Shown here piece by piece: positions 1 to 4,949 of a stretch of DNA of 4,949 nucleotides; the first letter of the stretch is position 1, and each line of letters starts with the position of its first letter. This stretch comes from a virus (taxonomy: Duplodnaviria; Heunggongvirae; Uroviricota; Caudoviricetes). The stretch lies in IMG/VR virus record IMGVR_UViG_2529292882_000009. One strand, 5' to 3'. A program made the position numbers and the translations under genes. The notes below the pieces were generated by a model. That model had not been told where the DNA came from, did no database searches, and saw only the letters and a list, made by a program, of their open reading frames with translations.

Positions 1-52
1 AATCCGCCTTAAATAACAGTTTGTTGCAGTTTTTACAGCGAATTGATTTCAT
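1..52 (-). CDS. com: N-terminal 17 codons (MKSIRCKNCNKLLFKAD) of a small Cys-rich zinc-finger protein resembling phage Mu Com, the translational activator of mom; gene continues beyond the window start
   Basis: Reverse complement of 1..52 reads ATG AAA TCA ATT CGC TGT AAA AAC TGC AAC AAA CTG TTA TTT AAG GCG GAT. AGGAGG Shine-Dalgarno (rc of 57..62) lies about 4 nt upstream of the ATG (rc of 50..52). The CxxC motif at residues 6-9 and the position immediately downstream of the invertase match the Mu gin-com-mom layout as I recall it. Too short for the ORF track; partial. Confidence 0.5.
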   Translation of the reverse strand, partial: MKSIRCKNCNKLLFKAD

Positions 53-134
53 CTCACCTCCTTTGCATCAATTCGCCACTATCTTAAAAAACATCGTGGG
101 TTAAGTGTGGTTATTAGGGCATAATCGATCTGTA
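53..134 (-). promoter_or_regulatory. Promoter/leader region for the Com-like gene (mom-operon-type, activator-dependent weak promoter)
   Basis: On the minus strand: candidate -10 TAAGAT (rc of 81..86), preceded by a T6 tract (rc of 86..91), candidate weak -35 ACCACA (rc of 106..111) with a suboptimal 19-bp spacer, then AGGAGG and ATG. Promoter elements are assigned by eye and by recollection of the Mu mom promoter (poor -35, T-tract in spacer); not experimentally anchored. Confidence 0.4.
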
Positions 135-161
135 TTACCGATCGATTTGATTGATTCGATC
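127..161. promoter_or_regulatory. Cluster of three GATC (Dam methylation) sites within 35 bp, upstream of the mom-type promoter and overlapping the invertase 3' end
   Basis: GATC at 127..130, 140..143 and 158..161, each inside an ATCGAT or CGATCG palindrome. The last two lie inside the final codons of the invertase (stop at 135..137). In Mu, three clustered GATC sites upstream of the mom promoter are the methylation-sensitive OxyR (MomR) repression site (established knowledge, recalled). Confidence 0.5.
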
Positions 162-728
162 GTCGTTTTCTATATGCGTTCGTTTCGCAGGGTGTTTTTT
201 ATACAGAGTTGACAGGGCCACATCGTAGATCAATGCGACCTGCTTGCGGGGGATTCCTTGTGCTAATAAACGCCCGGCCTGCTCCCACTCTGCTTTGGTT
301 AGTTTAGGTGGTCGCCCACCAATACGGCCTTTATTTCTGGCGGCAGCAAGTCCAGCCATCGTTCGCTCGATAATTAGTTCTCGTTCCATTTCAGCCAGAG
401 CACCCATAACGTGGAAGAAAAAACGCCCCATTGGAGAAGATGTGTCTATGTTGTCGGTCAGACTGCGAAAATTAATCCCTCGCTCCCGTAGTTCCCCGAC
501 GAGAGAAATCAGATGTTTCATACTTCGCCCGAGGCGATCCAGTTTCCAGACAACCAGCGTGTCACCTTTTTGAAGGCGCTTTAAAGCGCGTTTTAATCCC
601 GGTCGGTCTGTCTTTGTCCCGCTTAATTTATCTTCAAATATTTGTTCACATCCTGCACAAACAAGAGCGTTTCGTTGCAGGTCTGTATTCTGGTCATTTG
701 TTGATACCCTTATATAGCCAATCAGCAC
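135..728 (-). CDS. gin: Serine-recombinase DNA invertase, Gin/Pin/Cin/Hin family (resolvase-like catalytic domain plus C-terminal HTH)
   Basis: 197-aa ORF; N-terminus MLIGYIRVSTNDQNTDLQRNAL contains the catalytic-serine motif (YIRVST) typical of Gin/Pin/Cin/Hin invertases; C-terminal GRPPK...AIYDVALSTLYKK region matches the HTH DNA-binding domain. Start is GTG (rc of 726..728) with GGGAG Shine-Dalgarno (rc of 736..740) 7 nt upstream. Symbol gin is chosen because of the Mu-like neighbours (Com-like gene, GATC cluster); a Pin- or Cin-type orthologue cannot be excluded without alignment. Confidence 0.95.
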   Translation of the reverse strand: MLIGYIRVSTNDQNTDLQRNALVCAGCEQIFEDKLSGTKTDRPGLKRALKRLQKGDTLVVWKLDRLGRSMKHLISLVGELRERGINFRSLTDNIDTSSPMGRFFFHVMGALAEMERELIIERTMAGLAAARNKGRIGGRPPKLTKAEWEQAGRLLAQGIPRKQVALIYDVALSTLYKKHPAKRTHIENDDRINQIDR

Positions 729-1755: not shown

Positions 1756-2289
1756 ATGATGCACTTAAAAAATATTACTGCTGGCAACCCTAAGACAAAA
1801 GAGCAATACCAGCTAACGAAACAATTTAACATCAAATGGCTTTATACAGAGGATGGGAAAAACTGGTATGAGGAACAAAAGAACTTTCAGCCTGATACGT
1901 TGAAAATGGTCTATGACCACAACGACGTTATTATTTGTATTGAAAAGGATGTTTCAGCAATTAATCCAGAAGGCGCAAGCGTCGTTGAGGTTCCTGATAT
2001 TACAGCAAATCGCCGGGCTGATATTTCGGGTAAATGGATGTTCAAAGATGGCGTAGTGATAAAGCGAACTTATACCGAGGAGGAACAGAGGCAGCAGGCA
2101 GAGAATGAAAAGCAAAGCCTGTTGCAACTTGTCAGGGATAAAACCCAGCTATGGGACTCACAGCTACGGCTGGGAATCATTTCCGACGAGAATAAACAAA
2201 AATTAACTGAGTGGATGCTCTATGCGCAGAAAGTCGAATCTACAGACACCTCCAGCCTGCCAGTAACATTTCCCGAACAACCTGAATGA
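1756..2289 (+). CDS. Alternative tail-fibre assembly protein / chaperone (U'-like), currently in the silent orientation
   Basis: 177 aa; starts 2 nt after the S' cassette stop; first ~125 aa closely resemble the 2318..2848 product ([22 protein letters not shown] vs [23 protein letters not shown]; shared [18 protein letters not shown]), with a divergent C-terminal third. Family assignment by position and paralogy. Confidence 0.8.
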   Translation: MMHLKNITAGNPKTKEQYQLTKQFNIKWLYTEDGKNWYEEQKNFQPDTLKMVYDHNDVIICIEKDVSAINPEGASVVEVPDITANRRADISGKWMFKDGVVIKRTYTEEEQRQQAENEKQSLLQLVRDKTQLWDSQLRLGIISDENKQKLTEWMLYAQKVESTDTSSLPVTFPEQPE

Positions 2290-2317: not shown

Positions 2318-2848
2318 TTATTCAGGCTTTTGTGGCCATTCTGGCTTTGCCGTATCCACACGGCTGACCAGAACACTGTAGCGTTCCCATGACTCCAGTC
2401 GTGCGCGTTCCTCATCCGTCGCCATATTCAGTCTGACAGCGCGTTCCAGTGGCTGAATAACGTTTTCTGCTTCGGAAAGTAACGCGGCCTTTTGTGATTC
2501 GGCCTGTTGTTGTTGCTCGTCTGCCGTATAAATCCGTTTAACCACAGCTCCGTCCTTAAACATCCACTTCCCTGAATCATCGGCACGACGATTGGCTGTT
2601 ATATCTGGAATCTCAACGACGCTAAAGCCTTCGGGATTAAGCGTTGAGGCATCTTTGGTTATGGCAACAATAATATTATTTTCGTCGTATACAATCTTTA
2701 TGGTGTCGTCCTGAAAGTTATTTACTTCTTCATACCAGTTTTTACCGTCTTCGGACCATAACCAGATAACATCAAAATTCTTTGTTAGCTGATATTGTTC
2801 TTTCGTTTTAGGATTTCCAGACTTAATATTTTTTAAATGCTGCATCAT
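2318..2848 (-). CDS. Tail-fibre assembly protein / chaperone (U-like), in the expressed orientation
   Basis: 176 aa; tandem ATG start (rc of 2843..2848) directly abuts the fibre stop codon (TAA, rc of 2849..2851); AGGTG Shine-Dalgarno upstream; paralogous to the 1756..2289 product. Confidence 0.85.
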
Positions 2849-4354
2849 TTACACCTGTGCGACGTTATACCATGTGCCATTGATGTATTTTTGTATTGGC
2901 CTGAAGATGGCTTCATCATCGCCATCTACTTCACCAATGATTCTTAATCCGGTAATTGCGTGTCCGGCTTTTTCATAACGACCACCACGCGCCATCAATT
3001 GAACAACACGTGTGCCAAGTCGGACATCTCTCACATAGCGTGAGTCAAAATTGCCATAATTGCCGGGAATAACTTGCGCACCACAAAGCCAGTTACCGTT
3101 ATTATCCATGTACGCCTGACCATCGGTGCCATTGGCTGTCCTTGAGTTATTAATCATGTAGATGCCAAATTGCTTGTTCCCCAGTCCACCTATCATGAAC
3201 TTTCGGTCGGCGTGATTCTGGCGAAGTAACGCCTGAGCGCTATCAGTGTTAACTATATTTTTCCCAAAGATAGCGTTGTTATCGCGCATCTGAATCCACA
3301 TACCATTACTGCTGTTAATAGCAAAACGGTCTGAAAGTGTCTCCCCTGAAACATTAAGACCACGCCCCATCGAAACAGCGCCAGTAGCGTTATTAATCCA
3401 TAATGGCCTTAATCCGTTATAAGTCCCCATGTTGTCACCGGAGTTTGTCAACATGAAGTATGTATTTGAACCATCATTACGAATAAAGAATCCGTAATTA
3501 CCATAAGCAATACGTAGGCCGTTTGCTGATTTTGATATGACTTCGCCATTTACAATGGCATTGACAAGAACATACAAAGCATCCCATTTAAGATTCATCA
3601 GGTCTTTTGTTGTGGTGCTCTGGCGGCTTCTCCATTTGAAATATTCATTGCCGTTGTCGCCTGTTTCAAACCACATGTATGAATCAGTGTCGCTGTCGGC
3701 ATCATTTTTAAATCCAATCTTTGCCCAGTCAGTATTCCGAATCCAGGCAAGGATTGAGTCGTTTTCAAAAGTAAGTCCGCCGGACAAGGTATCGCCTGTC
3801 TTTTGAACGGCGTTACCAGCCTTGTTTACCGTTTCCTGTAAACCGAGGTTTTGGATAAACAGCGGCTTATTGGGAATATCTGCTCCGTTCCGGTCTTTTG
3901 CCAGACGGGCATTGGCATTATCCATCGCAATTTTCACCGCTTTTGCGGTGGCTGCCAGCGTTTCACTGAGGCTGTCAGTGGCACTGGTTAGCTGAACGAG
4001 TCCTTTTTTGTTCAGGCTGGCATCATAGATATCCAGATTTTCACGTGCTGTACGCTGTGCTGATGCCCCGGCAATTTTAATTTCGCTGAGGTTATTTTTT
4101 ATCAGCAGCGCGTTATTGCTCATAATGGCTTTAATGGACAGTGCAAGCTGGTTTAATTTTGTTTTATCCGGTTGAATACCGGCTTCTTCCAGCGTGTTTA
4201 ATAACTCCGCCTGCACAATATTAAACCAGTCCATGCCGGGCCATGTGATAACATTATTCCCGTCACCTTCTGAAAACCAGCGAACGATAGCACTACGCTG
4301 GGCGGATACGGGCGGCATGACGGTTACGCCGCTGTCGTTATCAATATAAAACAT
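2849..4354 (-). CDS. Tail-fibre protein (S-like): constant N-terminal part (4354..3859) fused across the right inverted repeat to the currently expressed variable C-terminal part (3824..2849)
   Basis: 501 aa; GGAG Shine-Dalgarno upstream; start ATG (rc of 4352..4354) overlaps the upstream gene stop by 1 nt (TAATG). The inverted repeat encodes FIQNLGLQETVN in frame. C-terminal two-thirds are rich in N, G, W, Y as expected for a receptor-binding tip; ends RPIQKYINGTWYNVAQV. Confidence 0.9.
   Translation of the reverse strand: MFYIDNDSGVTVMPPVSAQRSAIVRWFSEGDGNNVITWPGMDWFNIVQAELLNTLEEAGIQPDKTKLNQLALSIKAIMSNNALLIKNNLSEIKIAGASAQRTARENLDIYDASLNKKGLVQLTSATDSLSETLAATAKAVKIAMDNANARLAKDRNGADIPNKPLFIQNLGLQETVNKAGNAVQKTGDTLSGGLTFENDSILAWIRNTDWAKIGFKNDADSDTDSYMWFETGDNGNEYFKWRSRQSTTTKDLMNLKWDALYVLVNAIVNGEVISKSANGLRIAYGNYGFFIRNDGSNTYFMLTNSGDNMGTYNGLRPLWINNATGAVSMGRGLNVSGETLSDRFAINSSNGMWIQMRDNNAIFGKNIVNTDSAQALLRQNHADRKFMIGGLGNKQFGIYMINNSRTANGTDGQAYMDNNGNWLCGAQVIPGNYGNFDSRYVRDVRLGTRVVQLMARGGRYEKAGHAITGLRIIGEVDGDDEAIFRPIQKYINGTWYNVAQV
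3825..3858. repeat. Right inverted repeat of the invertible segment (gix-type recombination site), inside the tail-fibre coding sequence
   Basis: tttaccgtttcctgtaaaccgaggttttggataa; its reverse complement differs from 783..816 by one base (A vs G, partner of position 802). Core dinucleotide at 3845..3846 (GA on plus, TC on minus) matches the left core. Confidence 0.9.
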
Positions 4355-4896: not shown

Positions 4897-4949
4897 TCAA
4901 TTGTCCCCGGTGTTAACAGTTCCGTATTCTCCGAACGCTGGATCTCTGT
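4897..4949 (-). CDS. 3' end (last ~17 codons, ...RDPAFGEYGTVNTGDN, plus stop) of an upstream tail/baseplate gene entering from beyond the window end
   Basis: Open minus-strand frame from the window edge to TGA (rc of 4897..4899), which directly abuts the next ATG, consistent with a translationally coupled late-gene operon. Identity unknown (baseplate J-like by position only). Confidence 0.35.
   Translation of the reverse strand, partial: RDPAFGEYGTVNTGDN

Follow-up and report, generated by a model that had tools for sequence, protein, structure and literature searches.

The truncated reading frame at the edge of a Mu-like prophage sequence is almost certainly the 5' end of com

Introduction

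Is a stop-free run of 17 codons, cut off by the end of the sequence that carries it, the beginning of a genuine small gene, and if so, which gene is it and why does it break off? The question is raised by one edge of a 4,949-nucleotide stretch of DNA, the whole of which was analysed here and is referred to as the window. A first-pass annotation had noted a CxxC motif and a strong Shine-Dalgarno sequence at this edge, and had proposed the start of a Com-like zinc-ribbon translational regulator.

The com-mom operon is a textbook example of layered control over a toxic phage gene, in which Dam/OxyR, the activator C and Fis are combined with a zinc-finger protein that activates translation. In phage Mu, translation of mom requires Com (PMC3378877), a zinc-finger protein whose zinc binding, RNA binding, activation of mom and 19-mer target (GAAUGCCUGCGAGCAUCCC) are known (PMC6483171). 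The hairpin target in mom mRNA adjoins a translation-inhibition structure (the TIS model), the stem of which holds the GUG start of mom, and binding of Com has been proposed to melt this structure and thereby expose the start signals (PMC6483171). Here, we identify the truncated reading frame from its neighbourhood, its match to Mu and its complete relatives, and trace its premature end to the source assembly.

Results

The window is the right end of a Mu-like prophage

The open reading frames, Pfam matches and phage annotations gave the following genes:

4896-4354, minus strand: Mu gp48-family baseplate protein (Pfam PF10076)
4354-2849, minus strand: tail fibre S, 501 aa (ORF list, Pfam)
2848-2318, minus strand: tail-fibre assembly protein U (ORF list, Pfam)
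1756-2289, plus strand: alternative U', inverted (ORF list, Pfam)
ending at 1753, plus strand: C-terminal part of alternative S', inverted (ORF list)
135-728, minus strand: gin, the G-segment serine invertase, 197 aa (Pfam Resolvase and HTH_7; Gin in the Mu and D108 annotation)

Together with the mom promoter (Pmom) and the com start that follow gin, these genes identify the whole window as a Mu-like prophage's right end. Their order, gp48-S-U-(U'-S')-gin-Pmom-com, is shared with Mu and D108; the gene immediately upstream of com is gin. By BLAST, D108 and Mu matched the whole window at 96% identity, and the best whole-window identity among the complete E. coli genomes and phage records searched was 96.5%. 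Over the first 800 bases, identity was 98.5% to PhiR68_1 and 95.5% to Mu. No nearer relatives were found than E. coli prophages and the phages Mu and D108. The gp48 protein was too widespread to discriminate, since a protein look-up returned 12011 index blocks and only other prophages.

We also noted several features of the tail-fibre region. A 58-nt inverted repeat (81% complementary, 783-840 and 3801-3858) bounds the invertible G segment; its arms lie within S and shortly upstream of gin. S and U lie in line with gp48, so the G segment is in the S/U-expressing orientation, while U' and S' are inverted and silent. A 379-aa open reading frame on the plus strand (614-1753) starts at a TTG within gin, on the strand opposite to it, and extends over the boundary of the G segment; its portion within that segment alone corresponds to the variable C-terminal exon of S' (331 aa as called in related loci), and the frame is not an independent gene. 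U is given as 176 aa in some records and as 175 aa in others with identical or near-identical DNA; the difference is one of start-codon choice (ATG ATG, window 2846-2848), and not of sequence. Two other Mu-like prophages (L014 and L017, 6543-10111) lack both gin and the inverted U'/S', and have an 854-aa S fibre and a single U followed directly by com-mom, which suggests a fixed, non-invertible tail-fibre module. On a metagenome scaffold (L015, 3926-6010), mom-com-gin is inverted beside a truncated baseplate J (179 aa), upstream of gp48; this arrangement looks like either an assembly chimera or the outcome of a large inversion with gin-associated sites at its ends.

The edge fragment matches the first 17 codons of Mu com

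Read on the minus strand from position 52 to position 1, the edge of the window translates without a stop into MKSIRCKNCNKLLFKAD. The elements of this fragment and of the region ahead of it are listed below:

158-161, 140-143 and 127-130, no strand assigned: three GATC (Dam) sites upstream of Pmom (identical in Mu)
111-124, minus strand: putative C activator site, dyad TTAT-N6-ATAA overlapping the -35 region (from the sequence; the half-sites are our reading)
81-111, minus strand: Pmom core (alignment to Mu, whose record annotates a 'late promoter' here)
111-106, minus strand: -35-like element of Pmom, ACCACA (PMC2582627)
105-87, minus strand: Pmom spacer, 19 bp (PMC2582627)
91-86, minus strand: T6 run of Pmom (PMC3378877)
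86-81, minus strand: -10 element of Pmom, TAAGAT (alignment to Mu)
63-54, minus strand: Shine-Dalgarno sequence of com, AAGGAGGTGA (from the sequence; AF083977 annotates a ribosome-binding site here)
52-50, minus strand: com start codon, ATG (from the sequence)
1-52, minus strand: 5' end of com, with the first 17 codons and one further base, truncated where the window meets a gap in the scaffold

Both features that had drawn attention to the edge were there. C6 and C9 form the CxxC motif, as zinc ligands, and the Shine-Dalgarno sequence places GGAGG 4 nt ahead of the ATG; we take its ten bases to be complementary to the 3' end of 16S rRNA. The proposed kinship with Com held as well, and exactly: all 17 residues and all 52 coding bases are shared with Mu com. 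In an alignment of window 170-1 with Mu and PhiR68_1, the Shine-Dalgarno sequence was identical in all three, and the whole of window 102-1, that is, the -10 region of the mom promoter, the leader, the Shine-Dalgarno sequence and the 52 coding bases, was identical to phage Mu (AF083977). The matching stretch of that record is annotated, in order, with Gin, the 'late promoter', a ribosome-binding site, the 'translational activator Com' and a Mom that overlaps the end of com. The Mu Com protein is MKSIRCKNCNKLLFKADSFDHIEIRCPRCKRHIIMLNACEHPTEKHCGKREKITHSDETVRY.

The fragment had been reported as missing from the mechanical list of open reading frames, and indeed it is, because that list omits frames that run off an end of the sequence.

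The control region upstream of com is that of Mu with four substitutions

The ACCACA element of Pmom and its 19-bp spacing have been described in Mu, where C recognises an imperfect dyad of 16 bp, whose centre is at -43.5, and leaves a footprint spanning -30 to -55 (PMC2582627). The T stretch of the promoter and the interplay of Dam and OxyR are likewise described (PMC3378877). Compared with Mu, the spacer between gin and com in the window has four substitutions (window 149, 116, 103 and 96), all of which spare the -35 element, the T6 run, the -10 element, the GATC sites and the half-sites of the dyad. Those at 103 and 96 fall in the Pmom spacer, and that at 116 in the N6 of the dyad. OxyR reportedly binds over exactly these three GATC sites, in work by Bolker and Kahmann from 1989.

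An exact-pattern scan for the Pmom variant of the window found no match in GTDB species representatives; in IMG/VR, the same scan found it in one Mu-like UViG (2541047851_000005, locus L003), which is 99.5% identical to the window over gin-com and carries a different G segment.

The remaining substitution, T-to-C at window 149, turns the Mu gin stop TAA into CAA (147-149, minus strand), and Gin therefore gains four codons (QIDR) before a TAA at 137-135. The extension gives a 197-aa variant and runs over the second upstream GATC/PvuI site in the control region of mom. This Gin variant is common; it was found in 351 index blocks, E. coli SE11 included.

A gap in the source scaffold cuts com at position 1

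Exact look-ups of the Gin and S proteins encoded here traced the window to scaffold JH768571.1 (assembly GCA_000261385.1), where all 4949 positions equal positions 3406-8354 of locus L019. The window is bordered at either end by a run of N (2501-3405 and 8355-9064 of the locus), and the base that follows '...AAGGCGGATT' in JH768571.1 is the first N. The gene is thus cut at position 1 because the scaffold gap begins at the very next base, which says nothing about the gene itself, and what looked like a 'partial ORF' is an artefact of the assembly. The window carries 17 of the 62 com codons, and the source scaffold is N from the next base on. The first-pass annotation had called for upstream sequence to complete the frame. 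That description is right only in plus-strand coordinates; com lies on the minus strand, and its missing part is downstream of the gene start, beyond position 1.

Past the gap, the scaffold resumes within mom, and the last 442 bases of that gene show no mismatch to loci L020 and L021. The neighbourhood expected of com is therefore present on one scaffold, with gin and Pmom in the window and the 3' part of mom past the gap. A third run of N follows the right end of Mu (L007, 4954 onward), which brings the gaps across the prophage region to at least three; perhaps repeated Mu-like sequence in this genome left the prophage so badly fragmented in GCA_000261385.1.

Complete relatives carry an intact com across the gap

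The two closest gap-free relatives, L020 (GCA_036175105.1) and L021, equal the window at 4947 of 4949 positions, and both mismatches lie in gp48. They also share with it the 197-aa Gin variant and the Pmom variant. At the place of the gap they have 342 nt, which supply codons 18-62 of com and the first part of mom, and their Com reads MKSIRCKNCNKLLFKADSFVHIEIRCPRCKRHIIMLNACEHPTEKHCGKREEITHSDETVRY, with the second cysteine pair present at C26 and C29. We most likely see in this protein, which is also that of L008, the version of Com that belongs to the prophage of the window.

The survey then covered all retrieved loci with the same 52 bases: 19 complete, one cut at codon 55 and two from the gapped scaffold. 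A second CxxC within about 30 residues, the feature by which the first-pass annotation proposed to judge the fragment alongside an alignment to Mu Com, was found as C26-P-R-C29 in a 62-aa Com in each of the 19 complete gap-free copies; the twentieth, which a contig end breaks off at codon 55, has C26 and C29 too. No early stop occurred in com among the gap-free copies carrying the same 52 bases, and neither an early stop nor loss of the second pair, the two outcomes that had been named as fatal to the proposal, was seen in any relative. In every gap-free copy, the 19-nt RNA target of Com (GAATGCCTGCGAGCATCCC) lies 107 nt after the ATG, outside the window.

The 17-aa fragment alone is too short for profile scoring, and a full-length relative was used for the profile tests. 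Com of L008 scored 31.4 bits against PF10122 (Zn_ribbon_Com), for which the cut-off is 22.9 bits and Mu Com scores 36.8 bits, and it matched phrog_13819 ('gpCom control of modification') over 1-62 of 62 residues (E=3.2e-44). These families come from Mu-like prophages, including those of Haemophilus and Neisseria, and the part of the relative behind its Pfam match is the N-terminal zinc ribbon, residues 2-29. The 231-aa frame that overlaps com downstream is Mom (Pfam PF25680, E=2.5e-75); in L008, com and mom share 50 nt, and the right end of Mu comes next. A sequence search of the PDB turned up neither Com nor a clear relative among solved structures, only marginal zinc-ribbon matches with E of about 0.4.

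Judged by sequence, the fragment belongs to the Mu Com family, its second cysteine pair, profile match and RNA target being read in near-identical relatives. With Mu Com (gp52/Mup54, AAF01130.1), the window shares the first 17 residues, the 52 bases, the Shine-Dalgarno sequence, the -10 region and the place after gin and Pmom; the nearest complete relatives have the same 62 aa length, four cysteines and RNA target as Mu Com. Com of L008, L020 and L021 differs from it by D20V and K52E, both beyond the window. From the Coms of E. coli prophages (L008 and L020, GCA_036175105.1; L011, E. coli SE11, AP009240) and of L003, the fragment differs in nothing of substance, except that they are complete where the window has its gap.

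The gap itself leaves room for a reading in which com is present by descent but broken: a small mobile element, for example, or some other insertion or a rearrangement could lie hidden there, and the 17 codons would then begin a pseudogene. The run of N after com is 710 long where L020 and L021 have 342 nt, and the other bounding run (905 N) comes within about 4 bases of the true distance in relatives, as judged from the shift in gene coordinates between L019 and L020; the prophage region of this scaffold has at least three gaps. Gap lengths in a scaffold are, however, estimates. Both flanks match intact relatives (2 mismatches in 4949 positions on one side and 0 in 442 on the other), all 19 complete gap-free copies are intact, and there is no positive sign of an insertion. 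We accordingly regard a broken com as very improbable, and give the same slight chance to an insertion of ~370 bp, or a rearrangement, after codon 17 at the com-mom junction of this prophage. If true, the control that Com exerts over mom, a toxic gene, would be uncoupled or inactivated.

That the fragment is no gene at all, but a short chance frame with a purine-rich stretch and an accidental CxxC, has a negligible probability: no more than 17 codons can be seen and random frames often contain a CxxC pair, but the fragment matches an experimentally studied gene exactly in sequence and position, and Mu, D108, SfMu, PhiR68_1 and many prophages all conserve the full reading frame, its Cys4 pattern and the RNA target. 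This reading was rejected on the identity to Mu and the conserved complete copies.

Almost certainly, then, the fragment is where com begins, and with it the com-mom operon, at the right end of an enterobacterial Mu-like prophage; com would work by the Mu mechanism, and it is incomplete in the window only by reason of the assembly gap.

The window's copy of com would act as in Mu

The mechanism is taken from the Mu literature, and we infer it for the copy in the window. Late in lytic growth, the activator C would bind the dyad over the poor -35 element of Pmom and recruit RNA polymerase, while Dam methylation at the three upstream GATC sites would block repression by OxyR. The transcript would begin about 20 nt ahead of the com ATG, and the strong Shine-Dalgarno sequence should allow efficient translation of Com, a predicted protein of 62 aa in which a Cys4 zinc finger (C6, C9, C26 and C29) at the N-terminus is joined to a disordered tail. 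Com would then bind the short hairpin within the 3' portion of the com coding sequence and open the adjacent translation-inhibition stem, which would otherwise sequester the Shine-Dalgarno sequence and GUG start of mom. Mom could now be made, and would modify adenines of the phage DNA against host restriction.

We also folded the RNA of L008. RNAfold pairs CCCACGGAG with AUUGUGGG, which places the GUG in a stem; its energy, however, did not stand out from that of shuffled sequences (z = -0.88). The RNA structure therefore rests on the published probing, and the RNAfold stem is not counted as independent support.

Discussion

The reading frame at the window edge shows no departure from the known Mu system; it is already known and ordinary. 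What the window adds is one more prophage copy of com-mom, and its value lies mainly in correct annotation.

The suspicion that genes as short as com are missed proved well founded. In L016, an intact 62-aa com (10867-11055) with the Shine-Dalgarno sequence GGAGGTGAA is uncalled in the record, although the neighbouring mom is called, and several records of Yersinia Mu-like phages label com a 'hypothetical protein'. Short com genes are under-annotated. With the 62-aa com sometimes uncalled or 'hypothetical' in public records, it was right to flag its first 17 codons at the edge of this window.
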